Shown piece by piece: positions 1,018 through 23,882 of a DNA stretch of 64,000 nucleotides. Within the stretch, counting starts at the first letter, position 1; the number at the start of each line of letters is the position of its first letter. Under the pieces are notes generated by a model, which saw nothing but the letters and a program-made list of their open reading frames with translations, did no database searches and had not been told where the DNA came from. The DNA comes from Spirochaetia bacterium (GTDB lineage Bacteria; Spirochaetota; Spirochaetia; UBA9216). Where the stretch lies: assembly GCA_963677925.2 (NCBI GenBank), contig CAXXYH010000004.1, positions 1,344,001 to 1,408,000 of the forward strand. Direction: 5' to 3'. The translations under genes were made by a program, and so were the position numbers.

Positions 1018-1052
1018 AAACTGGCGAATCAGTTTTTAACACATTATTCTTT

Positions 1053-1086: not shown

Positions 1087-1124
1087 ATTTTTCTAAGGTC
1101 AAATTTATAGGTAGGATGTAGGAA

Positions 1125-2914: not shown

Positions 2915-2923
2915 TAACAGCAG

Positions 2924-7448: not shown

Positions 7449-9014
7449 TTATATCTGCAGTTCGCGTTTCATGTACTTTTCATAATACCTTATCATCTGG
7501 CATGAGAATATAATACGCTGACGCAGAATGCCGTCCTCAAGATCAAGTTCAATGAGTTTGTTGATTTTATTAACCTTATTTATGACTGTGTTCCTGTGAG
7601 CATAGGTAACCGCCGCTGTTTTTACCAGGTTCCGGTCATTCAGCAGGTAATAAAACAGGGTGTCCCGAAGGTTAGTGTTGTGATCCCTGTCGTATCTGGT
7701 CAGGTGCACAACCGCCGGATGAATCAGATAGACTATGTCGTTATGGTGATGAAGTTCGTAGAATCGGTGCGCGCACATATCTATTGCGGTATATATCCAG
7801 AACTCCTCGTAAAAGAATATCCTCTCTTTCAGGTTCTCACGAAGTTCGCAGGCCAGCGGAATTGTGTTTTTTGCCAGAATATTGAGTGAGCGCAGGTTTC
7901 CGAAATCCCTGGTTCCGTTGCTTATCCCAATAAAACCGTTGTGCCGCTCAAGAATGGTTTCAAGCCTTTTTGTATCAAGGTTTAAGTTGAATGTCCTCTG
8001 CGGATAGGTTTGAAGAATCACAACCTCATTCTCGTAAACCGTCATATTGCAGTCCGGAAATACTTCTCGCAGCTGTGCAAATATAAAACTTGAGGGCGTC
8101 TGCTTGGTGTTTTTATTCCGGAAAGTTACAACAATCACGCGGACAAAGGTTTCAATTGGAAAGGGCATCAGTCTGAGTCTCTGAATTATCTCGAAGGTCT
8201 GGGTCAGGCTCTGATCCATTATTTCCATCCAGAACTGTTTGAAGTCCTTTGTATAGGTTCCAAGCTTCAGCGAATTGGCCGGAAGGATGTGGCGGTGAAT
8301 CGCCTGTCCGGCACAGACGCATAATCCCCTGCAGTCAATCTCGATCTGTTCAATGCTGCTTTCAATCAAGATAACACTAACAAGCTGATCCTCGTGATAT
8401 ATCCGGTATCCGTAAAGGCGAATACCGCTCTCGGCTACCTTATATTCAACCGGTAAATGCTTCTCTGATCTGTTTATGAAAATAGAGTCTGCAATTTTTT
8501 TTGGGAGAGCGCCTGTCTGGTCCAGATGTTCGGTCAGAAATTTGCTTTCTTCCAGTTTGCAGCTGAGTACGATGCGGTAATTCGGATTCAGCAGAATGAT
8601 CGGGGATTCGGCAAAATCAGATGTCAGATTAAGCATTGCGTATAAGGACTGATCATCAGCTGTAGCATATTTATCAAGCCAAATCTGCCTGAGAGTGAGT
8701 ATTTTGTTGATCATAACAAAAAGATTCGTCCGCGGACAGGAAAGGTAAATAACCGAAATTTCAGGATTCTTGTTCAGGATCACATAATTTGATTTGTGTT
8801 CACATATAAAAATTACAGTACCGGGTTCAATTTCGACATTTTGAAGATTTCTTACTGTTTCTTCGCCAGCGCCTATCCAGGTCTTATCTGCACATAGGGT
8901 TTTCTGATTATCTATAAAATCAACTTCCTGCGGGCATGTTTCCGGCAGGTTCTTTTCATCGGCGTAAACGGTGCACTGCCTCAGATGCTGAAAAAGATAT
9001 GACAGATAAAGCAT
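7449..9014 (-). CDS. PucR/CdaR-family transcriptional regulator
   Basis: C-terminal YDRDHNTNLRDTLFYYL..NLVKTAAVTYAHRNTVINKVNKI helix-turn-helix; divergent from the tct operon. Confidence 0.88.
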   Translation of the reverse strand: MLYLSYLFQHLRQCTVYADEKNLPETCPQEVDFIDNQKTLCADKTWIGAGEETVRNLQNVEIEPGTVIFICEHKSNYVILNKNPEISVIYLSCPRTNLFVMINKILTLRQIWLDKYATADDQSLYAMLNLTSDFAESPIILLNPNYRIVLSCKLEESKFLTEHLDQTGALPKKIADSIFINRSEKHLPVEYKVAESGIRLYGYRIYHEDQLVSVILIESSIEQIEIDCRGLCVCAGQAIHRHILPANSLKLGTYTKDFKQFWMEIMDQSLTQTFEIIQRLRLMPFPIETFVRVIVVTFRNKNTKQTPSSFIFAQLREVFPDCNMTVYENEVVILQTYPQRTFNLNLDTKRLETILERHNGFIGISNGTRDFGNLRSLNILAKNTIPLACELRENLKERIFFYEEFWIYTAIDMCAHRFYELHHHNDIVYLIHPAVVHLTRYDRDHNTNLRDTLFYYLLNDRNLVKTAAVTYAHRNTVINKVNKINKLIELDLEDGILRQRIIFSCQMIRYYEKYMKRELQI

Positions 9015-9110: not shown

Positions 9111-9215
9111 ATGTGCGAAAAGTACAAAATATTCTTTCATTAATGTGCTTATATCACAGATTATCAGACGCCTTTAAAAAATGATTTTTAAGGAAAAACT
9201 ATCACGTGTTAGCCT
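9111..9215 (+). promoter_or_regulatory. Tandem TGT-N-ACA operator (probable PucR sites) with extended -10 promoter of the tct operon
   Basis: atgtgcgaaaagtaca (9111) and atgtgcttatatcacaga (9143), 32 bp apart; TGtTAGCCT at 9207; same architecture recurs at 15141-15244. Confidence 0.6.
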
Positions 9216-9257: not shown

Positions 9258-9320
9258 ATGAATTGCCCGCCTCGTGCTGCGCTCAGACCCAAACTATTTA
9301 AAACGGAAATTTCAAAATGA
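9258..9320 (+). CDS. Putative 20-aa upstream peptide MNCPPRAALRPKLFKTEISK
   Basis: Strong AAAGGAG RBS; its TGA overlaps the tctB ATG (ATGA). Confidence 0.4.
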   Translation: MNCPPRAALRPKLFKTEISK

Positions 9321-9811
9321 CTGAATATATAAAAAACAAGAAAGATTTTATCCTTGGTGTTGCTACTATTGTGATTGCTGCGTTGATTACTATTCTTTCA
9401 ATGCAGCTCAGGGCTTCCGGATATGACGGTGACCCGGGTCCGAAAATGTTCCCGATGACCGGTGCCGCAATTATGCTTATCTGCGGAATTGCGCTGATTA
9501 TCAAGCCAGGCAAGGTGGCAGGTACCTTCCTTACCCGTAAACAGTGGCTCTCGGCACTTACCATGTTTGGTGTTTATGTCGGAGTTGCTGTTCTGTTTTT
9601 CCTTCTGGGATTTATGCTCTCTCTTCCGATTATTGCCTTCACTCTTACCTTTCTAATGAGCAGGCTGTCGCTGAAGGATCTGGAGCTGAAAAAGCGTATT
9701 CTGAAAAGCCTTATCTATGCGGTAATTGCCAGCGTCTGTGTATACCTTGCATATGTTGTAGGTCTTAACGCAAGGCTTCCTGAAGGTTTGATATTTAAAC
9801 TTTTCTACTGA
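9317..9811 (+). CDS. tctB: Tripartite tricarboxylate transporter TctB
   Basis: GDPGPKMFP motif, 4-5 TM helices, LPEG near C-terminus; adjacent to tctA. Confidence 0.88.
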   Translation: MTEYIKNKKDFILGVATIVIAALITILSMQLRASGYDGDPGPKMFPMTGAAIMLICGIALIIKPGKVAGTFLTRKQWLSALTMFGVYVGVAVLFFLLGFMLSLPIIAFTLTFLMSRLSLKDLELKKRILKSLIYAVIASVCVYLAYVVGLNARLPEGLIFKLFY

Positions 9812-9823
9812 GGATAAAAAATA

Positions 9824-11344
9824 ATGGAAATAATGGATTTAATTTTTGGTGCACTGCATAATATTTTTACGCCTACAGGACTTATATACATAATAGCGGG
9901 AGCCCTGGGCGGAATCGTGCTTGGAGCTATTCCCGGCCTGGGAAGCTCAACGTTGATGGTAATTCTGTTACCTATAGCCTACCGTCTGGATACCAACCTG
10001 GTTCTGGCGCTGTTTATTTCAATTGTAATCGGAGGTATGTCCGGCGGATGTATCGGGTCAATTCTTCTGGGAATTCCTGGTACTGCCTCGTCGCTGGCAA
10101 CGGTCTGGGACGGGTACGAGTTTACCAAACAGGGAGACCCTGTCCGCCCCTTAAGCGCCGCGGTAACAGTTAACTTTCTGGGAACCTTCCCTTCAATCAT
10201 TCTTGCAATCTTTGCCTGCCGCGGTATTGCAATATGGGCTGTTAAACTTGGGCCATGGGAATATGCCGCCTTATGTTTCTGCGCTATTCTGATGGTTGTA
10301 GGACTGTCCAAAGGCAACCTCGTAAAGAGTATGATTGGTGTAGGCCTCGCAATCTTTCTGGCTTCAATCGGTGAAGACCCCATAAATGCAAGCGGACGTT
10401 TCTTGCTTTTCGGACGTCTTGAGTTCCTAAAGGGCCTGAACCTTATCAGCGTAATGCTTGGTCTTTTTGCCGCCAAGATTATTCTTCTTGAATACGCAAG
10501 GGCAAGTAAGACTGAACAGAAAATCGATATCAAGGTTGGCGGGTACAAGTGGCCCGGAAAAGACCTTTCAAAGAATAAACTTCCCGTACTGAGATCCTGG
10601 ATACTCGGTGCTGTTGTAGGATTCCTTCCGGGCCTCGGCGGTCCTGTTGCTTCTGTTATGGGCTATTCCACCGAGAGAATGCTTGCAAAGGACAAGTCCA
10701 AATGGGGCAAGGGTGAGATTGCCGGTGTTCTATGCCCGGAAATCGCCAAGAACTCCGCAATCGGCGGTGCTCTTATTCCGCTTATCGCACTGGGTATTCC
10801 CGGCGACGCGGCCAATGTTCAGTTTATTACTGCCCTGAACGTTAAGGGAATAAACGTAGGTCCCATGTTCATGCGTGAACAGCCGATGATCGTTTACATC
10901 ATTTTTATTGCCGCCCTTATTGCCGCAGTAATCTGTCTTCTGTATGAAACATTCTGTATGAAGACCTTTCCAGCCCTGCTGAAGATTCCCTATCACTACC
11001 TCTATTCAATGGTTGTAATTCTGGCTTTGACCGGAGCTTTCATGACTACAGGAAGCTTCTTCGGTCTGATGGTCGCGCTGTTCTTCTGTCTGCTGGGGAT
11101 CGTTATGGATGTCTTCGGGGTGCCGAGTCTGCCTTTTCTGATGGCATTCATACTCTCGCCCATGCTTGAGCTCAATATCAGAAGGGGTCTGAACTATTCA
11201 GTAAACGGTTTTTCAGAGTTTTTCCGCAGACCTATATCCTGCGTATTTATCATAGTCGGACTTGGTGTTCTTATATACGGTTTCGTGGGACCTGTTATCA
11301 AGAAGGCGATAGCCGAAAGAAAAGCTGCGGCAGCAGTTAAATAA
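9824..11344 (+). CDS. tctA: Tripartite tricarboxylate transporter TctA
   Basis: GAIPGLG, GIPGTASSLATVWDGY, GFLPGLG and LGIPGD motifs; 506-aa membrane protein. Confidence 0.93.
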   Translation: MEIMDLIFGALHNIFTPTGLIYIIAGALGGIVLGAIPGLGSSTLMVILLPIAYRLDTNLVLALFISIVIGGMSGGCIGSILLGIPGTASSLATVWDGYEFTKQGDPVRPLSAAVTVNFLGTFPSIILAIFACRGIAIWAVKLGPWEYAALCFCAILMVVGLSKGNLVKSMIGVGLAIFLASIGEDPINASGRFLLFGRLEFLKGLNLISVMLGLFAAKIILLEYARASKTEQKIDIKVGGYKWPGKDLSKNKLPVLRSWILGAVVGFLPGLGGPVASVMGYSTERMLAKDKSKWGKGEIAGVLCPEIAKNSAIGGALIPLIALGIPGDAANVQFITALNVKGINVGPMFMREQPMIVYIIFIAALIAAVICLLYETFCMKTFPALLKIPYHYLYSMVVILALTGAFMTTGSFFGLMVALFFCLLGIVMDVFGVPSLPFLMAFILSPMLELNIRRGLNYSVNGFSEFFRRPISCVFIIVGLGVLIYGFVGPVIKKAIAERKAAAAVK

Positions 11345-11412
11345 ACTGAAATTTTATAAATCTTCGCAAATAGCAGGGCAACCTGTATTTGAATATAAAT
11401 TTGGAGGAAGAA

Positions 11413-12477
11413 ATGAAAAAGGTAATTGTATTACTCATAGCAGTTGGACTGATCTTCAGTCTCGCCGGTTGTGACAAAACAAAATCCGCAGAAGGTTCAT
11501 CAGCTAAATCTTCTGAATCAGCATCATGGCCCAATGGTGACATTACAATTCTGGCAGGTTATGCTGTCGGTTCAAGGACCGATATCAATATCCATACAGT
11601 AGCAGACTGGATTACAGACAAAACAGGTGCAACAGTTCGAATTGAGAACAACGATACAGGCGGCGGTGCCAACCTTGCCACCCAGCTTGTTCATGCTGAT
11701 CCGGACGGACAGACTCTTATGCTTATCGGTATGAACTGTATTGCAAACTACTACAGCGGTCTGTGGTCAGTTAACCCCTGCGATACAAGCCAGTTTAAGC
11801 TTGTATGCGGAGCTATTCAGCCCTATCCGGATTCAGGATGTATTCTCGTAACTCAGGCAAATCAGCCTTACAGCAACTGGGAAGAACTTGCAGCATATGC
11901 AAAAGCCAACCCCGGAAAGGTAACTGTAGCTTCTATTGCCGGAAAAGTTATGGACATCAAGATGAAGGGTCTGTTTAACGGAACCGGCGTAGCAAAGGAT
12001 ATCAGATGGGTTTCAACTACAAATGCAGATGCCTCTGCCGGCCTTTTAGGCGGAAATATAAATATAATCATTCTTGATGAATGGGCAGCCAGCGGCTACC
12101 TCAAGGATGACAAGGTTAAGGCAATCATCAACTCACGTGATAATGCTGATTATTCCTACTACAAAGACGGTGAAGAAAAGGATATCATCATGAGTGTTCC
12201 TACACTTATCGATGTTTTCGGTGAAGAAAAAGGCAAGGCTCTTGCTATTCCCAACCGCTCAATGTTCGTAGCTCCGGCAGACACTCCTGATGAAATTGTT
12301 GCTCAGATTGCAGAAGTCATTGATGCTCTAGGCGCAGAGACAGAGGGTGATTACTATGAGAGAACCCTTATTAACGGCGGAACTTCAAAGTACTACACAT
12401 GGCCGGGTAAAGAAGTTATGGATGAATGGAACAGACTTGATCCAATAATTAAAGATATTGTTGAAATGGCAAAATAA
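11413..12477 (+). CDS. tctC: TctC/Bug-family substrate-binding lipoprotein (divergent)
   Basis: LAGC lipobox; WPNGDI..GYAVG..D, ENNDTGGG, DGQTL, KANPGK and PADTP Bug-type motifs; GGAGG RBS before ATG 11413. Confidence 0.82.
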   Translation: MKKVIVLLIAVGLIFSLAGCDKTKSAEGSSAKSSESASWPNGDITILAGYAVGSRTDINIHTVADWITDKTGATVRIENNDTGGGANLATQLVHADPDGQTLMLIGMNCIANYYSGLWSVNPCDTSQFKLVCGAIQPYPDSGCILVTQANQPYSNWEELAAYAKANPGKVTVASIAGKVMDIKMKGLFNGTGVAKDIRWVSTTNADASAGLLGGNINIIILDEWAASGYLKDDKVKAIINSRDNADYSYYKDGEEKDIIMSVPTLIDVFGEEKGKALAIPNRSMFVAPADTPDEIVAQIAEVIDALGAETEGDYYERTLINGGTSKYYTWPGKEVMDEWNRLDPIIKDIVEMAK

Positions 12478-12511
12478 TTCCCCGCTTTACATTTAAAAAT
12501 AAAACCAATTG

Positions 12512-12532
12512 GGGAAGCCCTATGGGCTTCCC
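12512..12532 (+). terminator. Stem-loop after tctC
   Basis: gggaagccc-tat-gggcttccc perfect inverted repeat without a strong U-tract. Confidence 0.5.
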
Positions 12533-12568
12533 TGCATTAAAAGAAATAAAAGATTACCAGGAGTCTTT

Positions 12569-13948
12569 ATGAACCTTTCCCATACTCTCGCAGAATTTGT
12601 GGCAGAGACTGTATATGATGATATTGATCCGCGTGTTATAGAGACTCAGAAGAAATCGGTGATGGATGCCGTGGCAATTACACTCGGCGCTTCCGGTCTG
12701 GGGGACGGCTGCAGCCAGATGCTTAAAATTGCGAAGGACCTGTCGGCCGGAGGAAGCGGGGAAGCTGCTGTAATAGGATTCCGGGAACGTCTGCCCGCAG
12801 CCTGGGCAGCGTTTGCCAATGCTTCAATGGCGCACTCTCTGGATTTCGGAGATACTCATTTACGAAGCACAATCCATTCAAACTCATCAAGTTTTCCGGC
12901 AGCTCTGGCCATGTCAGAGAAGATTGGAAACATATCAGGCAAAAAACTTCTTGAAGCCCTGGTTCTCGGAAGCGAGGTCGCAGTCCGCATTGCCCTTGCA
13001 GCCGATGTTAATACACTTGAATACGGATTCTACATCCCCACAATCTATTCATCCTACGGAGCAACCGCGGCTGTTGCAAAGATTATGGGTTTAAGTGCCG
13101 AGCAGATTGTAAGCGCTTTTTCTTTTAATCTCTGTCAAAGCACCTGCAGCAGTGAGCTCGTCAACAATCCGAAAACTGCTCTAAGGTCCATTCGTGAATC
13201 CTTTACTGCCAGAAATGCTATTGTCGCCTGCTGTATGGCCCGGGAGGGGCTTACAGGTTTTGATGCTCCGCTGGAAGGAGAGCTTGGTTTTTATCATGCA
13301 TTTCTTCATGACAACTATACCGCAGAAAAGGCCCTTGACGGTCTGGGTACTCATTACGAAGCAGGTGATCTTACATTCAAGGTATGGCCCTGCTGTTTCG
13401 GAACTCATTCATCAATCACCGCAGCTTCAATTATTGCGAAAGAAGAGAATGTAAAGGCTGAAGACATAAAACATATTCAGGTCTCAATCGGAGCTCAGAA
13501 CAAAATGCTTTTTGAGCCGCTTGATGAAAGACGGAATCCCGAATCATCAATAATCGGGAAGTTCAGTATTCCCTTTACAATGGCTACAGCTCTAATCAAG
13601 GGGAATGTTGATTTAAACAGTTTCAGTAAGGAAAACCTTCAGGATAAGCAAGTCAGAGCTCTGGCTTCACTTATCGATTATACATATATGGAAGACTGGC
13701 AGCGGGGAAAGGAGGCCTGGACTAAGGTTATTATCGAAACCGCCGGAGGTACATTTGAACGCATGGTTACAAATCCATTCGGTACTCCCGAGAATCCGAT
13801 GGATGAAAACATGTTTGATCTGAAGTTTGATTCCTGCGCGCAAAATGCAGTTAACCCTAAGACTCAGCAGGAACTTGACCTGCTGAAATCTTCAATCAGA
13901 ACTCTCGAAGACTGTAAAAACATCTGTGAGTTTACAGAACTTCTCTAA
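12569..13948 (+). CDS. MmgE/PrpD family protein
   Basis: AAFANASMAHSLDFGDTH, FKVWPCC..TH, KFSIPF and GTPENPM motifs; AGGAG RBS before ATG 12569. Confidence 0.92.
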   Translation: MNLSHTLAEFVAETVYDDIDPRVIETQKKSVMDAVAITLGASGLGDGCSQMLKIAKDLSAGGSGEAAVIGFRERLPAAWAAFANASMAHSLDFGDTHLRSTIHSNSSSFPAALAMSEKIGNISGKKLLEALVLGSEVAVRIALAADVNTLEYGFYIPTIYSSYGATAAVAKIMGLSAEQIVSAFSFNLCQSTCSSELVNNPKTALRSIRESFTARNAIVACCMAREGLTGFDAPLEGELGFYHAFLHDNYTAEKALDGLGTHYEAGDLTFKVWPCCFGTHSSITAASIIAKEENVKAEDIKHIQVSIGAQNKMLFEPLDERRNPESSIIGKFSIPFTMATALIKGNVDLNSFSKENLQDKQVRALASLIDYTYMEDWQRGKEAWTKVIIETAGGTFERMVTNPFGTPENPMDENMFDLKFDSCAQNAVNPKTQQELDLLKSSIRTLEDCKNICEFTELL

Positions 13949-13964
13949 TTAAGGATAAAAACAA

Positions 13965-15125
13965 ATGAATAAAGAAAACATAACCATTCTGGGGGTAGGA
14001 GATAATATTCCGGGAATGGGATACTATGATGGTCTGTACGATCATGTTGCACCCATACTTCAGGATGCTGATATTACATTCGGTCAGCTTGAAACCGTTC
14101 TCATCGATGAAAAAATTGATGACCTGTTTCCCTTTGCTGCTTCACAGGCTCGAATGCCCTGTTCTTCAGATCCGAAAGTGGCTCCGGTGCTTAAGGATGC
14201 CGGCTTTGATATAGTATCATTCGCCTCAAATCACTCGCTTGACTACGGCCGTTTTCATTTCCTTAATACAGTTGATTATCTGCGGAATGCAGGTATGGAA
14301 GTTATCGGCGCCGGTGAAAACGAAGAAGATGCCCGACGCTTTTCAGTGATTGAGCGTGACGGAACAAAGATTGCCTTTCTCGGCTACTGCACAATACTGC
14401 CGCAGGATTACTGGGCGCAGGAAGCCCGTCCCGGTGTTAACCCTGCACGGGGGCATACATACTATGAGCAGATAGAGCATGATCAGCCGGGCACACCCTG
14501 CAGAGTGCACAGCTGGGCTCACAAACAGGACAAGGCGCATCTGCTTGATGATATTGCTCAGGCTAAAAAGCAGGCTGATATAGTTGTTGTTTCAATGCAT
14601 TGGGGTATTCATTTTACACAGGCCGAGATTGCCGAGTATCAGAGAGAGTATGCATATGAAGCAATTGATGCCGGTGCGGATCTAATCCTGGGGCACCATG
14701 CTCATATCCTCAAGCCTATCGAGGTATACAAGGGCAAGGTGATCTTCTATTCGCTTGGAAATTTTGCAATGACTGACCCTGATAAAATGGAGCGTGATAA
14801 AAAAACTCTTCGTCAGGATATGCGTACGTCAAAAAAACATCAGGAGATGGCCAGGATACGCAAGGGCTTCGGCACCGGCAACGCGGCCAAAACCTTCCCT
14901 GAAGATTGCTACTATTCAATGATAGCCAAGATTTCAGTTAAAGACAGAAAGATAGATCGCGTCTCCTATATTCCGGTCTACATTCCTGATGATTTCAAGC
15001 CCTACGCGGTGAAGAATGATGATCCGCTATTTAATACTATATTTGATTACATGAAGAATATTGATCAGATGATGAATATAGAAACTGCGTACAGCATAGA
15101 AGGGGATGAGGTTATTATTGATTAG
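13965..15125 (+). CDS. CapA-family metallophosphoesterase-fold hydrolase, cytoplasmic
   Basis: GVGD, GQLE, ASNHSLDYG, SMHWG, GHHAH and YSLGNF motifs; no signal peptide or TM anchor. Confidence 0.88.
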   Translation: MNKENITILGVGDNIPGMGYYDGLYDHVAPILQDADITFGQLETVLIDEKIDDLFPFAASQARMPCSSDPKVAPVLKDAGFDIVSFASNHSLDYGRFHFLNTVDYLRNAGMEVIGAGENEEDARRFSVIERDGTKIAFLGYCTILPQDYWAQEARPGVNPARGHTYYEQIEHDQPGTPCRVHSWAHKQDKAHLLDDIAQAKKQADIVVVSMHWGIHFTQAEIAEYQREYAYEAIDAGADLILGHHAHILKPIEVYKGKVIFYSLGNFAMTDPDKMERDKKTLRQDMRTSKKHQEMARIRKGFGTGNAAKTFPEDCYYSMIAKISVKDRKIDRVSYIPVYIPDDFKPYAVKNDDPLFNTIFDYMKNIDQMMNIETAYSIEGDEVIID

Positions 15126-15140
15126 GACATAAGCTTTTGC

Positions 15141-15244
15141 ATATGCAAATAGCACATTACCCGGAAGACTGTTTGTACGCATGTCACAGACTTTAATTTT
15201 CCGGGGATGATTTGTTTTTATTTAAAAAATAAACATGTTAGGCT
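15141..15244 (+). promoter_or_regulatory. Second copy of the tandem operator and extended -10, upstream of the glycyl radical enzyme
   Basis: atatgcaaatagcaca (15141) and ttgtacgcatgtcacaga (15173), 32 bp apart; TGtTAGGCT at 15236. Confidence 0.6.
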
Positions 15245-15308: not shown

Positions 15309-17720
15309 ATGACAGGTCGTGTTGAACGAATGAAAGAAAGTCTGCGGGTCAATAAATATCCGCTGTGTATTCAGCTGTTCAGGCTGGCAAATGAGTCTCT
15401 GGATATGACAGCCGGAGAGCCGATGCTGCTGCGCCGATCAAAACTGCACGCACATATTCTTGATAACATTGATATATTTATTGAAGAGGATGACTTACTC
15501 TGCGGATCCGGAGCAAGCAAGCCCTTCGGTCTTGAGATGCAGTATGAATACGGTGTCTGGACACAGGATGAAGTAGAGTCGCTTAAAAGTGAAATCTATA
15601 CCATCGATCCTGAAGATGAGAAAGAACTTTACGAACTCAACGAACGCTTTGCCGGAAATTCACTCAACAGCAACCTGGTTGAGACAATGGGTAAATCTCT
15701 CGGAATGACAGAACGTCTATGGCCCTTCATGAAATCAGGAACAATACTTCCTCCATGGAAGGACAGAACCGGAGGTTCCGGCGGCGGATTTGCAATGTCA
15801 GGATACGGTCTGGGCCCGGGCTTTTCCCTGGTTGGAATTGACTACTCACGCATCCTTAACGGCGGAGCAAAGTCTGTAATTGAAGAAGCAAAGCAGTGTC
15901 TTCTTGATCTCCGCTATGATTCTTCAGATGCAATCGAAAAGAGAAACTTCTGGGAAGGTATAATCATTGTTTATGAAGCATGGGTCCGCTTTGCAGGCCG
16001 CTATGCTGATCTTGCCGAGAAGATGGCTGAGGCTGAAAGCAATGCCGACAGAAAGGCTGAACTTATTGAGATGGCCAGAATCTGCCGCAAGGTTCCATAT
16101 GAACCTGCTGAAACTTTCCATGAAGCACTGCAGTCTTTCTGGTTTACCTTCCTGCTCGTATGTCCTTCACCTACATCAACAGCCGGCCGTTTTGATCAGT
16201 ACATGTATCCCTTCTATAAGGCTGATATTGACAGCGGCCGAAGTGATGACGACAAGATTCTCGAACTCCTTGAAATCATGCGCTGCAAGGTTATGAAAAT
16301 CAACCGTGTATCAGGAAAGGCAAACAGGGCAAAGAATGCCGGTATGGCAAAGTGGTATAACTGGACAATCGGCGGTCAGAAGGCTGACGGCAGCGATGCT
16401 ACAAATGAGCTGAGCTATCTTCTTCTTGATGCTGCACTTGATACGCATCTTCCCCACCACACCATCACTGTCCGCGTTCATAAGGGAACTCCTGAAAAAC
16501 TGATGGTTAAGGCTCTTGAGTGCGTAAGAAGCGGACTCGGTCTTCCAGCCTTCCTCGGGGATGAATCAAACATCAACTTCTTTACCTCACAGAGCGATAA
16601 AAACAAGCTTTCGATTGAAGTTGCCAGAGATTATGTAGCAACAGGCTGTGTTGATGCCAACGTTCCTTCTGTAACCAGAACTCAGGTAGCCTGCTTTTTT
16701 ATCATACCCCAGGCCATGGATATCTGCATGCATAACGGATACTGCCGCTATACAGAGGAAATGGTCGGTATGCAGACAGGCGATGTCACTGAAATGAAAA
16801 CCTTTGAAGAGTTCAAGGCTGCAATGCATACACAGATACAGCATCTGATGAGCATGGCAAATGAACGAATCAACGTAGAGCTTATAGCAGAACGTGATCT
16901 CTTTCCGGATGTCTTCCGCTCCTCACTTATGAAAGACGGCGTCAAGGTTGGTAAGGATATGTTCAACCGCCGCTTCGATTTTGAAAACGGTGCGGTTCTT
17001 GGTGCAGTCGGCGGTGTAAATACAGGTAACGCCATGTACGCCATCAAGAAGCTTGTCTTCGATGAAAAGAAATACACCATGAAGCAGCTGATGGAAGCCC
17101 TTGATGCAGACTGGGTTGGATATGAGGATATGCAGGCTGATTTTGCTGCAGTGCCCAAATACGGTAACGATGATTCTGAAGTTGATGCAATGGTTGCAGA
17201 AGTTTATCAGCTCCATGCCGATACATGCCACAGTCTGCCATGCGCCTATGGTGATTCGCTCAAGCCGAACGCAATTTCAATTTCTGCACACCAGCCCGGC
17301 GGCGCCTGTACAGGAGCTACTGCAGACGGAAGAAAGGGCGGAGAGATTCTTGCAGATGCTTCACTGTCGCCCGATCATGGACAGGATGTCCACGGTCCTA
17401 CAGCAGTTTTCAAGAGTGCGATGAAAGTCAACCAGGATCCCTACCAGGGAACACTGATGAACATGAAGTTTCATCCAACGAACATGAAAACTGAAAGTGA
17501 TTTAAAGAAACTCGGTGCCTTGATTAAAACCTACCTGACTAACGGCGGTAAGCATATTCAGTTTAATATTGTTAACCGTGAAGATATGGTTGATGCAAAG
17601 GTTCATCCCGAGGATCATCCTGAACTGGTAGTTCGGGTTGCAGGCTACAGTGCCTACTTCACACGCCTTACAGACGGTATTCAGGACGAGGTAATTAACC
17701 GAATGTCCCATACTTTATAA
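15309..17720 (+). CDS. Glycyl radical enzyme (PFL-like superfamily), substrate unknown
   Basis: 803 aa; GRFDQYMYPFY; Cys loop ATGCVD (Cys447); Gly loop VRVAGYSAYF (Gly779); TADGRKGG. Confidence 0.95.
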   Translation: MTGRVERMKESLRVNKYPLCIQLFRLANESLDMTAGEPMLLRRSKLHAHILDNIDIFIEEDDLLCGSGASKPFGLEMQYEYGVWTQDEVESLKSEIYTIDPEDEKELYELNERFAGNSLNSNLVETMGKSLGMTERLWPFMKSGTILPPWKDRTGGSGGGFAMSGYGLGPGFSLVGIDYSRILNGGAKSVIEEAKQCLLDLRYDSSDAIEKRNFWEGIIIVYEAWVRFAGRYADLAEKMAEAESNADRKAELIEMARICRKVPYEPAETFHEALQSFWFTFLLVCPSPTSTAGRFDQYMYPFYKADIDSGRSDDDKILELLEIMRCKVMKINRVSGKANRAKNAGMAKWYNWTIGGQKADGSDATNELSYLLLDAALDTHLPHHTITVRVHKGTPEKLMVKALECVRSGLGLPAFLGDESNINFFTSQSDKNKLSIEVARDYVATGCVDANVPSVTRTQVACFFIIPQAMDICMHNGYCRYTEEMVGMQTGDVTEMKTFEEFKAAMHTQIQHLMSMANERINVELIAERDLFPDVFRSSLMKDGVKVGKDMFNRRFDFENGAVLGAVGGVNTGNAMYAIKKLVFDEKKYTMKQLMEALDADWVGYEDMQADFAAVPKYGNDDSEVDAMVAEVYQLHADTCHSLPCAYGDSLKPNAISISAHQPGGACTGATADGRKGGEILADASLSPDHGQDVHGPTAVFKSAMKVNQDPYQGTLMNMKFHPTNMKTESDLKKLGALIKTYLTNGGKHIQFNIVNREDMVDAKVHPEDHPELVVRVAGYSAYFTRLTDGIQDEVINRMSHTL

Positions 17721-17744: not shown

Positions 17745-17785
17745 GCGCCGGAAGCCCTTCACGGTTTCCGGCGCTTCCTTTTTTT
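17745..17785 (+). terminator. Rho-independent terminator after the GRE gene
   Basis: gcgccggaagcc/ggtttccggcgc stem followed by a T7 tract; lies between convergent genes. Confidence 0.8.
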
Positions 17786-17787
17786 AA

Positions 17788-18540
17788 CTACACCGGAATG
17801 ACAATTGTATGTCCGCAGGCCTCTGTTACAGCAGATTCCATCCCGTAAACCTCTTTAATATTCTCAGGATTTATTATCTCTTTCCCGCCTGCAGCATGTA
17901 CCCGGCCTTCCCTGATAAGCAGAAATTTATCTGAGTAGCGGAGCGCAAGATTAATGTCGTGCATTGTCATTACGGCAGCCATCGGTTTTGAATGGATTAA
18001 TCTGCCGATTCTTGCCATAAGCTGATGCTGGTGACTGATATCAAGACTGCTTGTCGGTTCATCAAAAAGTATCAGTCTGGGTCTCTGGGCAAGAGCCCGC
18101 ACTATCTGGACAAGCTGGAACTCCCCGCCGCTTAACTCGTCTGCATAGCGGAGTGCAAGCTCTTCCAGGCCCATCAGCTTGATAGCTTCTTCAACTATGG
18201 CATGATCTTCTTTTCGGGGAGACCAGTGAAAGTGAGGTTTTCTTCCAAGCAGAACCAAATCATATACCTTCATTCTGACGGGTTCGGAATGCTGGGCTAC
18301 CAGGCCCGTCTTTCTAGCCATTTCTCCATGGCTGATATCACAGCAGTTTTTTCCGTCAATTAAAACTGTGCCCCTGTCAGGAGAAAGTATGAGGTTGAGG
18401 CATTTTAGAAGAGTAGTTTTTCCCGCGCCGTTCGGACCGAGAATTGAAAGTATTTCGCCCTCTTTGAGTTCAAAGCCTGCATCATCAATAACCCGGCGGC
18501 TTTTATAAGCAAAACTCAGACCGTCTACCTTAAGAATCAT
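17788..18540 (-). CDS. ABC transporter ATP-binding protein (FecE/BtuD type)
   Basis: GPNGAGKTT Walker A, LSGGE signature, FDEPT, HDINLA. Confidence 0.93.
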   Translation of the reverse strand: MILKVDGLSFAYKSRRVIDDAGFELKEGEILSILGPNGAGKTTLLKCLNLILSPDRGTVLIDGKNCCDISHGEMARKTGLVAQHSEPVRMKVYDLVLLGRKPHFHWSPRKEDHAIVEEAIKLMGLEELALRYADELSGGEFQLVQIVRALAQRPRLILFDEPTSSLDISHQHQLMARIGRLIHSKPMAAVMTMHDINLALRYSDKFLLIREGRVHAAGGKEIINPENIKEVYGMESAVTEACGHTIVIPV

Positions 18541-19580
18541 CTGTTCCTTCCTGCCACAAGTAAATATATAAAGAGCGGCCCGCCGCAGATTGAGGTAAGG
18601 ATTCCTACGGGAAGAACCATCGGGGTTAAAACTGTTCTTGCCGCTGTGTCGGCTGCAAGAAGTATTATCGCGCCAATCAGCGGAGAGCTGATAAGCAGAA
18701 ACCGGTGGTCTGAGCCAAGCAGCCTTCGGGCAATGTGGGGACCCAGAAGACCGATAAATGCTATGGTTCCGAAAAAGGATACTATGACCGCCGAGATCAT
18801 GGAGGCGGCTGCCATTCCCGCAATACGCAGGGCTCCTGTCTTAATTCCAAGACTTTTAGCCGTATCCTCTCCGGTATCAAGGGCATTGAAATCCCACCGG
18901 AAATAAAAAAATGCAATGAATAGCGGAATGAGTACAGACGCTGTGATTACAAGCACGCGGTTGTTCGCCCTGCCCAGATCTCCGAAAGTCCAGGAAACGA
19001 TGCTTGCCAGCTGTACGCTGTCTGCCAGGTACTGCATTAAAGTCAGTCCGGCGGAAAAAAGAGAACCGATCGCAATTCCGGCAAGGACCATACTTTCAGC
19101 TGAAATCCTGGTGAATACTGTCAGCAGCAGAATGGCTATTGTAGAAACTGCGCAGAAGAAAAACGCCGAAGCGGCGACTGTAAATGAACTGCTGATAATG
19201 ATAGTTGATGTAGTGCCTGTGCCTGCACCGAGAAATACTATTGCAAATGAAGCTCCGAAGGCCGCCGCGCTTGAAAGTCCCAGGGTATATGGTGAGGCCA
19301 GCGGGTTTCGCAGGACCGACTGCATTACAGTTCCTGAGAGTGAAAGACCGGCTCCGACCAGCAGGGCTGCAATAATACGGGGCATTCTTACATCCCAGAC
19401 TATACGGCCTGTGCCTGAATTATCGAAGCGGAAAACATAGGCAAGCACATCTTTCAGAGGAATTCTGATAGTTCCTGCAGATGCTGAAAAAACAACAAGG
19501 GCAGCAAGAATAATTCCTGCTGCCGATATGAAAAGAATGCGTTTACTTTGCTCTTTTTTGTAAGAGCTGTAGATATTCAT
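18537..19580 (-). CDS. FecCD-family ABC permease
   Basis: RMPRI, MQSVLRNPLASPYTLG, AKSLG and GTIAFIGL motifs. Confidence 0.93.
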   Translation of the reverse strand: MNIYSSYKKEQSKRILFISAAGIILAALVVFSASAGTIRIPLKDVLAYVFRFDNSGTGRIVWDVRMPRIIAALLVGAGLSLSGTVMQSVLRNPLASPYTLGLSSAAAFGASFAIVFLGAGTGTTSTIIISSSFTVAASAFFFCAVSTIAILLLTVFTRISAESMVLAGIAIGSLFSAGLTLMQYLADSVQLASIVSWTFGDLGRANNRVLVITASVLIPLFIAFFYFRWDFNALDTGEDTAKSLGIKTGALRIAGMAAASMISAVIVSFFGTIAFIGLLGPHIARRLLGSDHRFLLISSPLIGAIILLAADTAARTVLTPMVLPVGILTSICGGPLFIYLLVAGRNR

Positions 19581-19582
19581 TC

Positions 19583-20728
19583 TCAGTTAAACCAGTCAAC
19601 CTGTGCCGGACCGCCTTTCTGCTGTTCTGTTACAGTTTTAAAATCAAGCGGAACATTAAAAAATAAGTCCCATATTTCCTCGGCCTTATCTTCAATTGTG
19701 AAATCTCCGAATATTTCCGGGTAGAGAATCTTGCCGGCATAGTAAACGTTGATAAGCTGATTTTCCCAGTTTGTTCCGTAATATTTATAAACAAAGGTGG
19801 AATAAACCTGCCGGTTGGTGAATGCCGGAACCTGTTCTTCAAGTACTCCCCGGTTTGTCTCAAAACCCTGTTTTGACAGATTTATATTGGCTGCATCTAT
19901 AAATACGTAATCGGGTGCCGCTGAAATAAGATCTTCAAGTGATGTCATGTAGGGCTGCAGATTTCCGGCCGGGTTGGTCGGCATTACATTCTCTGCCCCG
20001 CTTAAAAAGAAGGGAAGGTAGTCACCTGTTGTCCTGAGCAGATCAGCCGGTCCGTAATACATCATTCCGCCGGAATAGGCTTTTATGGGATTTGTAACCT
20101 CTGATTTGCGGGACTTTAGATCTGTCAATGATTCTTCAATTCCGGTAATCAGCTCTTTCGCCCGGGCTTCCTTACCAAGCAGGCTTCCCAGTGTATTCAG
20201 CTGACGGTAGAACAGTTCAGTATCGTAGAGTTCAACATCTACATCTACACCGAATACCGGAATCCCGAGTATCAGCTGCAGCTGGTCAAGCTGTGCGGCG
20301 TCTACTGTAGACGATATTATGATGTCGGGCGCTGCTGCAATAATTCCTTCATGATTATCCTTATTCCCGATGCTTGGAAGATTTTTAAGCTCCGGAAAAG
20401 CAATCCGGTATGTAGCCAGTGAAAAGAAGCCGTACGGGGATTTTTCCCTCCCGTGCCCTGCGTCTTCAACCGCAATAATTCTATCCGCTTCACCCATGTA
20501 GCAAAGCAGCCTGAGTGAGCCCGCATCAAGTGCAATTATTCCGTCGATATTTTCCGGAACTTCGATCTCACGGCCGCGCATATCCGTCAGTATGGACTGG
20601 GTTTGTACTGCAGGTTCCTCCTGCTGCGCGGATGCGAAGAGACTGAAACTTCCTGCAGTGAAAATAAGACTGAGCATCATCAGCCTGGAAATGTGCGGAA
20701 ATATATGTTTTCTCACTGAAATTCTCAA
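19583..20728 (-). CDS. Metal-chelate/cobalamin-type ABC substrate-binding protein
   Basis: TDMRGREIEVP, LPSIG, PDIII and PDYVF motifs; GGAGGT RBS suggests TTG 20728; signal peptide LFASAQQE. Confidence 0.88.
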   Translation of the reverse strand: MRISVRKHIFPHISRLMMLSLIFTAGSFSLFASAQQEEPAVQTQSILTDMRGREIEVPENIDGIIALDAGSLRLLCYMGEADRIIAVEDAGHGREKSPYGFFSLATYRIAFPELKNLPSIGNKDNHEGIIAAAPDIIISSTVDAAQLDQLQLILGIPVFGVDVDVELYDTELFYRQLNTLGSLLGKEARAKELITGIEESLTDLKSRKSEVTNPIKAYSGGMMYYGPADLLRTTGDYLPFFLSGAENVMPTNPAGNLQPYMTSLEDLISAAPDYVFIDAANINLSKQGFETNRGVLEEQVPAFTNRQVYSTFVYKYYGTNWENQLINVYYAGKILYPEIFGDFTIEDKAEEIWDLFFNVPLDFKTVTEQQKGGPAQVDWFN

Positions 20729-20816
20729 AATAGATACCTCCAAGGTGTTTATGAGATTGAGCTTCTTGTAAAACTCAGTTAGTTTTTTCTGAATTCGGTG
20801 TTATTCAGTACAAGAT

Positions 20817-20844
20817 GTGACACGAAAAATAAAAATCGTGCTAC
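20817..20844. promoter_or_regulatory. Putative NikR-type operator
   Basis: GTGACACG-AAAAATAAAAAT-CGTGCTAC: 28-bp imperfect palindrome with an AT spacer, the same overall length as E. coli GTATGA-N16-TCATAC; directly upstream of the ABC operon. Confidence 0.65.
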
Positions 20845-20893
20845 TTGATAACAAGGTATTATTTTTTTCAGTTGAAGTCAATTATAAAAAGGT

Positions 20894-21310
20894 CTAAAGT
20901 AATTCTTTAAACAATTCATCTGTTGCAGTAACTGCAAGTTTTCCGATTATCTTTTTGCTTGAGAGAAGTTTTTGCGCCCATGCATGAACTTCCGAACCTC
21001 TGCCTCTGACAACCAGAACTTTAATGCGGATGTCGTTGTCAGCATGAAGCTGAATATTGGCGGTAATTTGTACCGACGGGTAGTTTTCAACCAGAACACG
21101 TGGAAGGCGGGTGGAGTGGTGATATAGAAGCGTTACAGTACCTATTATCTCGGGATCGGCATCGCCTGAATTTGTTTCAACAAGGGCCTGCCTTACCAGA
21201 CTTCGGATAGTCTCTGATCGGTTTTCATGTCCCTGTTCAATAGTGAACCGGTCAAGAAGTTCGACCATCTCACTGTCCATTGAAACACCGAATCTTACTG
21301 TTTCTCCCAT
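20894..21310 (-). CDS. nikR: NikR-like ribbon-helix-helix regulator with degenerate metal site
   Basis: RFGVSMD..NRSETIRSLVR RHH domain; GTVTLLYHH and VLVVRG of the NikR C-terminal domain. Confidence 0.8.
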   Translation of the reverse strand: MGETVRFGVSMDSEMVELLDRFTIEQGHENRSETIRSLVRQALVETNSGDADPEIIGTVTLLYHHSTRLPRVLVENYPSVQITANIQLHADNDIRIKVLVVRGRGSEVHAWAQKLLSSKKIIGKLAVTATDELFKELL

Positions 21311-21376: not shown

Positions 21377-21892
21377 TTATAAATTTAAACTTTGTTTTAA
21401 CGATTTATTGTATGCGGAAATCTCAATAAATGGGATGGCAATTCCTGCCAGCCCGAATACCGCAGCCCCAATCTCTGCAATCAGAAAATCGGTGCTTTTA
21501 ACAGTCGGATCCTGCTCCATCATTCCTAATACCATGAATGTATAGCTGGCAATGAATCCTGCCTGAAGTATTGAACCTGAGAGAATATTTCCGTTAATCA
21601 GGCTTCCCATTCCTCCGGTACAGAAGTTGACAATGGATACTCCCCAGGGATCCTGTGAGTACTTTTTATACAGAATATCCTTATAGAAGGGAGCTAACTC
21701 TTCTGAATAAAGCTTCATCTGTGCAGATTCGTTTTCATCCAGAAATGAATCAAGTGAACACATTATATCCAGCTGTACATAGGGTATTATAGCTGAACTA
21801 AGATCTGTAAGATTATAATTTTCTTCGGCATATAAAGCTCCGGAGGAAAAGATTGCAGCAATTATTAAAGTCAGGAATATCTTATTTTTCAT
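21377..21892 (-). CDS. Exported membrane protein resembling the Borrelia P13 family
   Basis: Signal peptide MKNKIFL..ALYA; KKYSQDPWGVSIVNFCTGGMGSLINGN resembles the P13 core; hydrophobic C-terminal helices and YN..LK tail. Confidence 0.55.
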   Translation of the reverse strand: MKNKIFLTLIIAAIFSSGALYAEENYNLTDLSSAIIPYVQLDIMCSLDSFLDENESAQMKLYSEELAPFYKDILYKKYSQDPWGVSIVNFCTGGMGSLINGNILSGSILQAGFIASYTFMVLGMMEQDPTVKSTDFLIAEIGAAVFGLAGIAIPFIEISAYNKSLKQSLNL

Positions 21893-21894
21893 TA

Positions 21895-23694
21895 TTACTC
21901 TATCACCTTTATGCTGCCGAATCTTAATGTTGTGTCTATTTTTGACCATGTACCCGAGGCAATATCAATTTTACCATTGATAATCTCATTGGTCTGGGCA
22001 TTGGCACCCACAAAATACACTTCATCATTACTTGAAGATGTATCATATGAGACTACTTCTATAGTATTTCCAAGGTCTGCCGGTAATATTTCAATTTCTA
22101 CGTTGGTCGCAAAATTGAGTCTTGCCAGCTGATGTTTACCTGATTCCTCTCCATATGAATCAAGCACCGCATAGCGGTAATAAAGGCAGTCATCTTCAAT
22201 TTTAATTAATGAAGGGTACTGCGCTCCGTGTGCAAGATCAATCACCTGCAGATCTCTGTTTCCTGAATCATCGAGCAGTTTAACAATCTTTGTTCCGGTA
22301 GATTCGGATCCCCAGTAACCGGAATCATACAGTCCATAGAGTGCTCCGTCTGTTGACCAGAGCATGGTTCCTATGTTTCCGAAGTACAGATCATTCAAGC
22401 CATTTTCATCCAGCCAGTCTTTGAAGAGTTTTCCGTCAAAGTAGGTTCTTAAGAATTCTTCAGCATAGTTAGTAATCCACAGGTAAAGAGCATGTCCGCC
22501 GTCACTGTTACTTAAGGCTCCCGTGACAAAGGATTCCATTCCCGATTTTACCGAAGGTGTATCATAAAAATAGGGCTGAATTTTGGTGTATATTTTGTTA
22601 ATATCCACAACTCCGCCGGTTTTTACATCATCACGCCATTCATAGGCTGCCGCCTCCCATGTCTGAGAAATCTGATCGATGAGCTCTGTATTGTTTTCCC
22701 AGGAATCGTTATAGTATTTATAAAGGTGTATCCAGTCACCTGTGCCGTTGGATTCGCTGTACATTAAGTCATAACTTTGCTGATCGTCATTATCCAGGTC
22801 GGAAACCTTTATTATTCCGTTCATTCCCCGAATATTGGAGCCGTTTATTACAATATAATCGCCTGTAGGGCTGGTTGTGAATCCTCTGATCCATGTGTTA
22901 TTGTCGGACGAGTAGTAAATTGTCTGGTAGCCTGTAGAACCGTCGGAATAGTAACGCAGGTATGAAGCCGCTCCGGAGTCCCAGCCTTCACTCTGAAAGA
23001 ACAGGTGTTTCTTAGAATCAACCATAAAACGCTGTATTGACAGCGTAGCGCTTTCGGGCGTTACCAGTACCGGTTCTTCGGCAGTATCCGGGTCATAGCG
23101 GTAAATCTTGTGAGAGGTTGTACTTGAAGTCCAGGTTTCGACCTCGAAGTATAGTTTGCCGTCGGCACCTTTTACAAGGGGTTCATATTCCATTCCCCAC
23201 CAGTTCCAGGTGATAATCTGTCCGGCATCATTTATATCATCACCCTCCAGGCCTGTCGGAGGCCACAGCACATCATAATCGGAAGAGTCCGGATGAATAC
23301 GGATAAACTGAATTCCCTGACTGGTTGAGCCTGTCCAGACCCACCAGACCCATGAAAACCCGACATAGATTGAACCGTCATCCCCTGTTGTGATAAAGGC
23401 TATGTCAGGTGTTCCGCCGCCTGTATCAGTTTCAATTATTGATTCTATTGTGCCGTCTTCAAGGAATTTTACCAGTACAGGGTCTTCTTCCAGCGCCCTG
23501 GAATCAAGTCCCCTTGAGATACCTCTTGAGGCGCTGTCAATTCCTGCTACAGCCTTTGCCCCGATTGAGTTTACTGTCAGCACAGAACTTGAATCGGTTG
23601 AGAACATGTCTGCCATAAACGGGCCGAGTGCACAAGAAATGAACAGAGCAGAAATGCAGATTAGCAGTGAAAATTTTACGATTTGTTTTTTCAT
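21895..23694 (-). CDS. Large lipoprotein, probable beta-propeller, function unknown
   Basis: MKKQIVKF..LFISC lipobox; repeated DGSIY/DGKLY/DGALY beta-turn motifs; rich in Trp, Tyr and Asp. Confidence 0.7.
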   Translation of the reverse strand: MKKQIVKFSLLICISALFISCALGPFMADMFSTDSSSVLTVNSIGAKAVAGIDSASRGISRGLDSRALEEDPVLVKFLEDGTIESIIETDTGGGTPDIAFITTGDDGSIYVGFSWVWWVWTGSTSQGIQFIRIHPDSSDYDVLWPPTGLEGDDINDAGQIITWNWWGMEYEPLVKGADGKLYFEVETWTSSTTSHKIYRYDPDTAEEPVLVTPESATLSIQRFMVDSKKHLFFQSEGWDSGAASYLRYYSDGSTGYQTIYYSSDNNTWIRGFTTSPTGDYIVINGSNIRGMNGIIKVSDLDNDDQQSYDLMYSESNGTGDWIHLYKYYNDSWENNTELIDQISQTWEAAAYEWRDDVKTGGVVDINKIYTKIQPYFYDTPSVKSGMESFVTGALSNSDGGHALYLWITNYAEEFLRTYFDGKLFKDWLDENGLNDLYFGNIGTMLWSTDGALYGLYDSGYWGSESTGTKIVKLLDDSGNRDLQVIDLAHGAQYPSLIKIEDDCLYYRYAVLDSYGEESGKHQLARLNFATNVEIEILPADLGNTIEVVSYDTSSSNDEVYFVGANAQTNEIINGKIDIASGTWSKIDTTLRFGSIKVIE

Positions 23695-23882
23695 AGTTTT
23701 CTCCAACTTGTTACAATCTCTGATAAGAATATAATAGAAAAATAACGTTTGCAATTGTTTTCTTTATCGGTGATTACCTATATTTATACCGCTTTTTCTC
23801 CTCAAAATCTTTTAAATTTCTGCATAAACCGTTCAATTTGGAGCTTTATTATCTGTGTATAAGAAATACAGGAGGCTTTAAT

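Follow-up and report, generated by a model that had tools for sequence, protein, structure and literature searches.

The 64,000-nucleotide window analyzed here (Spirochaetia bacterium, assembly GCA_963677925.2, contig CAXXYH010000004.1, positions 1,344,001 to 1,408,000) encodes a glycyl radical enzyme (GRE) whose catalytic cysteine, Cys447, is followed two residues later by aspartate, Asp449. Judged from homologue alignments and trees, this Cys-x-Asp signature marks one well-supported clade, which is sister to an arylacetate-decarboxylase-like group and not to the CxE eliminases. The clade is a genuine but uncharacterised GRE subclass, and its candidate substrates form a short list that can be tested. 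The window GRE likely acts on an imported aromatic dicarboxylic acid derived from plant hydroxycinnamate esters. This substrate lead, obtained from partner genes of a hydroxycinnamate network, is the new element of the present work.

Radical motifs and tree position

The window gene is an intact GRE. Both Pfam domains, PF02901 (PFL-like) and PF01228 (Gly radical), score above cutoff, and together with the 10-stranded beta/alpha barrel fold, the glycyl fingerprint and the catalytic Cys they place the protein among the PFL-like GREs. The fingerprint RVxG[FWY]x6-8[FL]x4Qx2[IV]x2R, described for GREs as a whole (PMC13450708), fits the C-terminus when read by eye. Ala, Ser or Thr at the radical position, as in aminoacyl radical enzymes (AAREs), was not found, since Gly779 is present. 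The first-pass annotation had reported the Cys loop VATGCVDANV with Cys447 and an intact Gly loop RVAGYS with Gly779; both were confirmed at the codons listed in Table 1. The GCVD loop aligns with Cys433-Val-Glu435 of glycerol dehydratase 1R8W. An AlphaFold model computed from a 115-row alignment reached a pLDDT of 93.4, and the fold search with this model returned 5I2A as best match (Z 49.1, rmsd 1.9 A over 768 residues). None of the NCBIfam models reaches its cutoff, the best being TIGR01774 with 514 vs 678 bits.

A non-functional gene, or an ordinary eliminase with a neutral Glu-to-Asp change, is very improbable. Although no activase gene adjoins the GRE gene and fragments of broken copies occur in some gut genomes, the reading frame is full-length with both catalytic residues, identity is 79-99% over 120 listed homologues, an activase gene lies within 10 kb in 47 of 80 related loci, and the window genome has an activase of the clade type.

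The Asp loop had been taken by the first-pass annotation as the mark of a distinct GRE subclass, and this view is supported here. All 120 listed closest homologues carry GCVD, so Asp449 is neither an error nor a sporadic change, and a sporadic Glu-to-Asp substitution was thereby ruled out. Close homologues that all read CVE, which the annotation had named as evidence to the contrary, were thus not encountered, and a characterised GRE with CVD, the other such case, was found neither in passages of a GRE review nor in a full-text literature search. In a paralogous subtype with 120 homologues, Cys-x-Asp was present in all 113 readable sequences, while seven were not parsed by the motif pattern.

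For tree building with FastTree, 142 full-length rows were used. The window genome supplied seven, and the other 135 came from a list of 150 representatives of 50% clusters, 15 of which were dropped for length. The Cys-loop columns were removed beforehand. The window GRE was placed inside a 22-row clade (support 100), and 17 of these rows have Cys-x-Asp. Across the tree the Cys+2 residue is Glu in 69 rows, Asp in 20 and another residue in 53. Because of these 53 rows, and because three of the 20 rows with Asp do not belong to the clade, the Cys+2 residue by itself is insufficient for a subclass claim. An IQ-TREE quick tree of 46 chosen rows, in which the outgroup did not form one side of a branch, also recovered the clade (100) and a sister group of eight rows (99) with a joint support of 96; this joint support was 96-99 across the trees. 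The sister group includes P0160, which resembles arylacetate decarboxylase (AAD) and has 7E7L as best PDB match (677 vs 445 bits). Rows scoring best on the IAD model share a tree half with the clade, while true CutC and HpsG rows are in the other half. The decarboxylases in the trees are proxies only, as the characterised AAD, PAD, IAD and HPAD sequences are not among the rows, and the best PDB matches of the IAD-like proxy P0202 are CutC and GD instead of HPAD. A search of 251 Clostridia genomes with NF033718 for true IAD found none, but did not recover the positive controls either. The enzyme is best compared with the decarboxylases of the family and not with the eliminases. Its reaction is presumably a different one.

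Some clade members have other loops (P0131, P0133, P0135 and P0138 with CIP, CVY, CLG or ALS), and P0138 apparently lacks the catalytic Cys. Many close homologues (P0001-P0120 and related loci) have extra cysteines just before the catalytic one at positions 443-444 (CCTGC, CATGC), where the window GRE reads VATGC. Proteins of 149 aa in the cluster of P0080 (P0285, P0287-P0290, P0296) were considered as glycyl-domain spare parts. This was rejected, since they are internal fragments covering residues 496-643 of broken copies; as they occur on up to 102 contigs each, a decayed GRE allele appears to be common in some gut Clostridia. An Atlas search with a GRE homologue returned generic PFL-like clusters only.

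Partner genes and genome context

From 323 matching GTDB stretches, 80 loci were retained (75 Clostridia, 2 Spirochaetia, 3 others). In locus L055, the GREs lie beside genes for PadR, a CoA transferase, a CoA ligase, an acyl-CoA dehydrogenase, EtfB and a ferredoxin-EtfA. The best match of this dehydrogenase is caffeyl-CoA reductase CarC (631 vs 390 bits) and that of the ferredoxin-EtfA is CarE (608 vs 354 bits); the dehydrogenase of L004, 59% identical to the L055 copy, also matches CarC best (472 vs 371 bits). The Car-type set of five genes is complete in L055 and L078, while L029 and L004 have four and L036 and L066 two of them. With a threshold of E <= 1e-140 and with L048, L055 and L065 left out of the count, a CarC-like gene was detected in 39 of 77 carrier genomes (23/50 plus 16/27). 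In a sample of 300 Clostridia it was present in 12, including two that are themselves carriers. A GRE-linked flavin reductase, OYE (>=66% identity), was found in 12 of the 77 carriers. It lies 13-173 bp from the GRE gene on the same strand in seven loci and has no characterised close relative (BaiCD model 431 vs cutoff 825). Since none of these 12 carriers has a CarC-like gene, in contrast to 39 of the 65 others, CarC and OYE look like two interchangeable enoate reductases. Also, a fusion of CocE plus BD-FAE esterase domains is present in 28 of the 77 carriers but in only one of the 300 sampled Clostridia, again a carrier; fusion scoring covered at most two candidates per background genome and up to 10 per carrier. 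The CocE domain of the fusion retains Ser and His. Regarding possible substrates, rice cell walls contain truxillates and diferulates in ester linkage (PMC5994648), and faecal microbiota convert 8-O-4 diferulate to ferulate (PMC4772042, citing Braune 2009).

Neighbors were counted within up to 10 kb of the GRE, many contigs being shorter. Besides the activase, the 80 loci contain PucR (40), MatC (29), CocE plus BD-FAE (15), CapA (14), MmgE/PrpD (11), a UroD-fold protein (11), OYE (10), CoA transferase (9), acyl-CoA dehydrogenase (7), Tct (6) and HgdA/B (4-5). A MatC or Tct carrier occurs in 35 loci, CitMHS-type carriers are also present, and up to three Cys-x-Asp GRE paralogues were found per locus. 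No recurring Cys-rich small open reading frame (ORF), as expected for a small subunit, was found within 450 bp of 77 GRE genes, only seven unrelated chance ORFs. Clade members are found in Clostridia of the human and ruminant gut, among them Mediterraneibacter gnavus and Intestinimonas, and also in environmental anaerobes. The module was not found in 200 other Spirochaetota and was found in at least two of 400 Clostridia, one of them the search centre.

Several of the GREs have as neighbors a pair of 2-hydroxyacyl-CoA dehydratase-like proteins and a class III CoA transferase (L012, L044, L055/L092, L068, L069 and G000 C3:1394106-1398637). The pair scores far below the HadBC cutoffs, and one may speculate that it removes the aryloxy group from 8-O-4 dimers. 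UroD/MtaA-fold proteins without Pfam match (L055:12684-13760, L063:8821-9894, G000 C3:1291137-1292213) gave no PDB match and weak MtaA/CmuA scores; they are possibly O-demethylase components, and no corrinoid protein was seen nearby.

In the window, tctB, tctA, tctC, mmgE/prpD, capA and the GRE gene form a same-strand run with the GRE gene at its end and a divergent PucR regulator gene at its head (Table 1). The flank gaps beside the GRE gene are 183 bp and 67 bp. A TGTGC-N5-GCACA-like box (at most one mismatch) was detected upstream of the GRE gene in 30 of 76 loci vs 0.44 in shuffles, namely in 15 of 24 loci with and 15 of 52 without a divergent PucR gene. A sigma-70 scan gave eight sites vs 15.7 in shuffles, i.e., fewer than chance, and GC content shows no step at the operon. 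The best PDB match of the MmgE/PrpD protein is iminodisuccinate epimerase 2HP0. The MmgE/PrpD protein of the window retains H89, D92, H103, Y153 and K272, including the His/Tyr pair, while His152 and Lys202 of methylsuccinate isomerase are replaced by Ile and Arg (mapped by eye). For the CapA protein, the sole solved relative is PDB 8GQ9, and the sole NCBIfam match is a weak one to the MslH epimerase model (97 bits vs cutoff 700).

Ahead of the regulator gene, window positions 7-6001 hold a TRAP-like transporter (by eye) and a GH106 rhamnosidase-like gene (2924-6001); a GH106-like gene is also near the cluster in L064. On the minus strand, a FecCD-type ABC importer and a NikR-like regulator (17788-21310) converge on the GRE gene. 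This stretch differs from the near-identical locus L001 by an extra 181-aa ORF after the GRE gene, and two ORFs at 21377-23754 are absent from L001.

The window genome (G000) encodes seven GREs, five of the Cys-x-Asp type (the others 43-58% identical to the window GRE) and two with CxE, and only two GRE activases, neither in the window operon. The activase at G000 C3:709289 is of the clade type, with 75% identity to the L035 activase and a median of 48% vs 37% for the other activase; it may act on the window GRE in trans. Eleven related loci with two or three Cys-x-Asp GREs have at most one activase gene each. No pyruvate formate-lyase was seen in the window genome among tblastn matches to the GRE at E < 1e-8. 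Two copies of the CocE plus BD-FAE fusion esterase are present, and an island of ~90 kb (C4:1.276-1.362 Mb) contains Opp carriers, esterases, CapA, MmgE/PrpD, OYE and two clade GREs.

A MerR-type dyad starting with the 12-mer TTGACCTTCCCA has six copies in this genome vs 0.53 expected. It lies directly upstream of the activase-GRE-MatC operon and of the GREs at C4:213550 and C4:1341922, and also upstream of a second tct operon, of an MFS carrier near a carboxylesterase, and of a PucR gene that is the first in an Opp-esterase-esterase-CocE/FAE operon. Two regulators, assigned to the MerR/GyrI type by inspection of their sequences, adjoin two of the sites. Because the dyad is common to the activase, sister GREs and the esterase operon, the activase, three sister GREs, Tct, MFS and the esterase operon likely form one regulon.

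Table 1. Coordinates of the GRE gene, its motifs, the surrounding operon and the dyad copies (window positions unless a genome contig is given).
Feature	Position	Strand	Basis
Cys-x-Asp clade GRE, 803 aa	15309..17720	+	ORF list, Pfam, homologue searches, structure model
Cys loop VATGCVDANV, with Cys447 16647-16649 (TGT) and Asp449 16653-16655 (GAT)	16635..16664	+	translation, alignment
Gly loop RVAGYS, Gly779 codon 17643-17645	17634..17651	+	alignment
Clade-conserved Arg340, Lys348, Trp349 (cap helix and strand 3), predicted carboxylate and aromatic ring binding	16326..16355	+	clade alignment, mapped via 1R8W and HypD
Clade-conserved Arg457	16677..16679	+	103/106 clade rows
PucR-family regulator, divergent from operon	7449..9014	-	ORF list, Pfam HTH_30
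Two TGTGC-N5-GCACA-like boxes, likely PucR sites (putative link)	9112-9126, 9144-9158	.	motif scan
TctB, tripartite tricarboxylate transporter	9317..9811	+	Pfam PF07331
TctA, tripartite tricarboxylate transporter	9824..11344	+	Pfam PF01970
TctC binding protein	11389..12477	+	Pfam PF03401
MmgE/PrpD-family enzyme, likely start 12569, predicted alpha-carbon epimerase of substituted succinate-type diacid	12509..13948	+	Pfam, PDB match
CapA/PGA_cap-family metalloenzyme, epimerase or hydrolase candidate	13965..15125	+	Pfam PF09587
Third TGTGC-N5-GCACA-like box, upstream of GRE, overlapping a perfect 14-bp palindrome (15136-15149)	15142..15156	.	motif scan
Intrinsic-terminator-like hairpin, 12 pairs and U tail, closing the operon	17745..17774	+	hairpin scan
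TTGACCTTCCCA copies, the last ~2 kb before the window	G000 C3:709241, C3:1288659, C4:213490, C4:216078, C4:934218, C4:1341975		

Active-site pocket and candidate reaction

By alignment, four residues of glycerol dehydratase 1R8W, His164, His281, Asp447 and Tyr640, correspond to Leu174, Pro288, Val460 and Ile656 of the window GRE, and Phe333, Met338 and Tyr339 to Asn343, Lys348 and Trp349. We take His281, Asp447 and Tyr640 to be pocket residues of glycerol dehydratase; for His164 this role is given in a GRE review (PMC13450708). The HypD counterparts of positions 343/348/349 (Ser334, Asp339, Phe340) line its active site (PMC7077986). The hydrophobic positions of the predicted pocket are Trp349, Val460, Phe463, Ile656 and Ile658. 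In the 106 aligned clade rows, which include 74 close CVD relatives, Arg340 is conserved in 106, Lys/Arg348 in 103, Trp349 in 104, Asp449 in 101 and Arg457 in 103, while position 343 is Asn or Trp depending on the clade subtype. Such a hydrophobic pocket with extra basic residues would fit an aromatic diacid. In a 2026 IAD structure, the Cys+2 acid reaches the substrate via water and is positioned to protonate Cys (PMC13598205), and by analogy the shorter Asp449 could serve the same water-bridged role.

A substrate that is ester-bound, chiral, an aromatic diacid and upstream of cinnamate reduction points to a hydroxycinnamate dimer. We consider it rather probable that the substrate is a hydroxycinnamate-linked aromatic diacid and, given such a substrate, mildly favour dimer splitting as the reaction. 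Our first-ranked, tentative proposal is thus that the GRE may split imported hydroxycinnamate dimers of the truxinic, truxillic or 8-8 type into monomers; it is ranked first because it would explain paralogues, epimerases, carriers and reductases together, and several paralogues per locus fit several dimer isomers. Cyclobutane dimers have no reducible double bond and many stereoisomers, and ring strain would drive their opening. Abstraction of a phenolic hydrogen by a thiyl radical is about thermoneutral, and two beta-scissions would yield two cinnamates. In the proposed pathway, esterases would release the diacid from sugar esters, TctABC (MatC in many relatives) would import it, and the MmgE/PrpD and CapA enzymes would turn stereoisomers into the form accepted by the GRE. 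The activase at G000 C3:709289 would install the Gly779 radical in trans. Arg340, Lys348 and Arg457 would keep the carboxylates away from Cys447, whose thiyl radical would abstract the phenolic (or benzylic) hydrogen while Asp449 relays a proton via water, and beta-scission would open the ring or linkage to give cinnamates. These would finally be used as electron acceptors by caffeyl-CoA reductase or the flavin enoate reductase. The broadest form of this proposal appears doubtful: the clade as a new GRE class of radical cycloreversion/C-C lyases, which would crack cell-wall cross-link dimers into two cinnamates for respiration, with paralogues and epimerases covering the isomers and one activase serving up to five enzymes of 43-58% identity.

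Several observations weigh against dimer splitting or the substrate lead behind it. In the tree, a decarboxylase is the characterised enzyme closest to the window GRE, and the fold search puts eliminases first (Z 49.1 and 48.0 vs 43.7 for AAD). The pocket assignments are based on alignments. Within the fusion esterase, the FAE-like domain has a serine elbow but no canonical catalytic His. The enrichments of CarC and of the fusion are overstated because the carriers are related and not independent, and 26 of the 77 carriers have neither a CarC-like gene nor OYE at the thresholds used. In the window genome neither a CarC orthologue (best 49%) nor a close copy of the GRE-linked OYE (best ~31%) is present, and the window operon has PucR-like boxes but no MerR-type site. 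Also, Car and OYE do not prove cinnamate to be the GRE product, because they could reduce monomers or free dimer side chains. For microbial truxillate cleavage no paper was found in literature searches, and 5-5 diferulate is reportedly not cleaved by faecal microbiota (PMC4772042, citing Braune 2009).

Dimer splitting is only slightly favoured over radical decarboxylation of a related aromatic diacid, which agrees better with the tree but less well with the partner genes. If the GRE were a radical decarboxylase within this hydroxycinnamate network, itself a possible rather than a probable reading, it would hold a carboxylate at the Cys loop for Kolbe-type oxidation by the thiyl radical, and Asp449 would protonate Cys447 via water as proposed for IAD. 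Candidate substrates are an alpha-substituted arylacetate (e.g., reduced 8-5 diferulate), an aryl-succinate, or a reduced monomer (arylpropionate to ethylphenol). 8-5 diferulates are reported to be decarboxylated, but not split, by faecal microbiota. The sister position to the AAD-like group in the tree half with the IAD-like rows is consistent with a decarboxylase, although only proxies represent AAD and IAD there and P0202 matches other enzymes best. The retained acid at Cys+2 and a hydrophobic pocket resembling that described for IAD (PMC13598205) argue in the same direction, and the short distance of OYE to the GRE gene in seven loci also suits reduction followed by decarboxylation. A monocarboxylate substrate, however, would leave the dicarboxylate carriers, epimerase-like partners and invariant Arg/Lys unexplained, and decarboxylation yields no electron acceptor and would fit several paralogues with own importers and regulators less well.

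Another reading is an eliminase or isomerase whose substrate would be the non-aromatic moiety of hydroxycinnamoyl esters (tartrate, malate, glucarate, isocitrate), where an esterase would free caffeate for Car, MmgE/PrpD would epimerise the hydroxy-diacid and Asp449 would replace Glu as base. [quoted passage not shown] This explanation is nevertheless quite unlikely: all four glycerol dehydratase pocket residues are lost and the tree sets the clade apart from eliminases. Beta-hydroxy acids are dehydrated by ordinary ionic enzymes, so a radical enzyme would not be needed for hydroxy-diacids.

That the substrate is an unrelated carboxylic acid (e.g., an aminopolycarboxylate or sugar acid), with the hydroxycinnamate link reflecting shared niche and ancestry of the carriers, seems improbable. 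The closest solved relative of the MmgE/PrpD protein, iminodisuccinate epimerase, would suit it, as would the lack of Car in the window genome, the non-gut isolates among the carriers and the varying neighbourhoods. Against this, several loci have Car genes at most 10 kb away from the GRE, the fusion esterase is almost confined to carriers, and a common MerR-type site joins GREs and the esterase operon in one genome.

Comparison with known systems

A June 2026 review distinguishes seven GRE classes, none with Cys-x-Asp or dimer splitting in the parts covered (PMC13450708), and the passages considered of PMC11528403, PMC9108465 and PMC11572103 hold nothing on the Cys-x-Asp clade. A full-text literature search for 'glycyl radical enzyme' with 'GCVD', its scope mostly excluding subscription papers and supplements, returned nothing. 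Nothing relevant paired a GRE with MmgE/PrpD or with ferulate dimers among the matches listed. A search on 8-5 dehydrodiferulate found nothing, and the matches listed for truxillate degradation included no relevant paper. Also, the literature searches found no enzyme named for diferulate splitting by faecal microbiota. If dimer splitting is true, the enzyme family for anaerobic breakdown of cell-wall phenolic cross-links would be named, a point of interest for fibre digestion, dietary phenolic metabolites and radical biocatalysis. Even in the case of decarboxylation, the substrate search is narrowed from some organic acid to a short compound list. A single activase for several divergent GREs would bear on the question of activase specificity.

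Membership in PFL/TdcE does not apply, as the window GRE reads G-C-V without a Cys-Cys pair and scores 88 vs 994 bits on TIGR01255. Glycerol and 1,2-propanediol dehydratases (1R8W, 5I2A) are its top matches in sequence (428 bits) and fold, but Glu435 is replaced by Asp, the six pocket positions His164, His281, Asp447, Tyr640, Phe333 and Tyr339 are changed, and the tree branch is separate. More generally, the CXE motif is conserved in GRE 1,2-eliminases and isomerases (PMC13450708), from which the CVD loop and replaced pocket residues set the window GRE apart; on the CutC, HypD, HpsG, HpfG and PflD models it scores 400-487 bits vs cutoffs of 1000-1109.

Benzylsuccinate synthase and other X-succinate synthases perform radical C-C chemistry on a succinate backbone, and splitting of 8-8 dimers would be the reverse reaction type. 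The window GRE reaches only 292 bits with them, however, and their small Fe-S subunits were not found beside the GRE. To our knowledge, no member runs as a lyase. As partner system, CarCDE of Acetobacterium woodii (6FAH), to which CarA and CarB belong in the gene order carABCDE, is the best PDB match for the dehydrogenase and ferredoxin-EtfA beside the GREs, but it is absent from the window genome, and we know of no link between CarCDE and a GRE.

IAD and HPAD share with the window GRE the acidic Cys+2 residue and a hydrophobic pocket, and the acid of IAD works through water (PMC13598205). They differ by CxE instead of CxD, and the window GRE is shorter, has no small subunit that could be found, and scores 433 and 347 bits on the IAD and HPAD models vs cutoffs of 1100 and 1150. 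AAD of Olsenella scatoligenes (7E7L; a review questions the quality of this model, PMC13450708) has the loop GCVL and takes a monocarboxylate, and in the AAD-like rows there is no Arg340, no Arg457 and no Gly-rich segment at 150-172. With 410 bits to 7E7L, compared to 677 for P0160, the window GRE is not an AAD orthologue and lies beside, not inside, the AAD-like group. Like AAD, it belongs to the PFL-like GREs, has no small subunit and lacks Glu at Cys+2. The structural identity between the two enzymes is 33%, and the AAD-like group is the sister of its clade.

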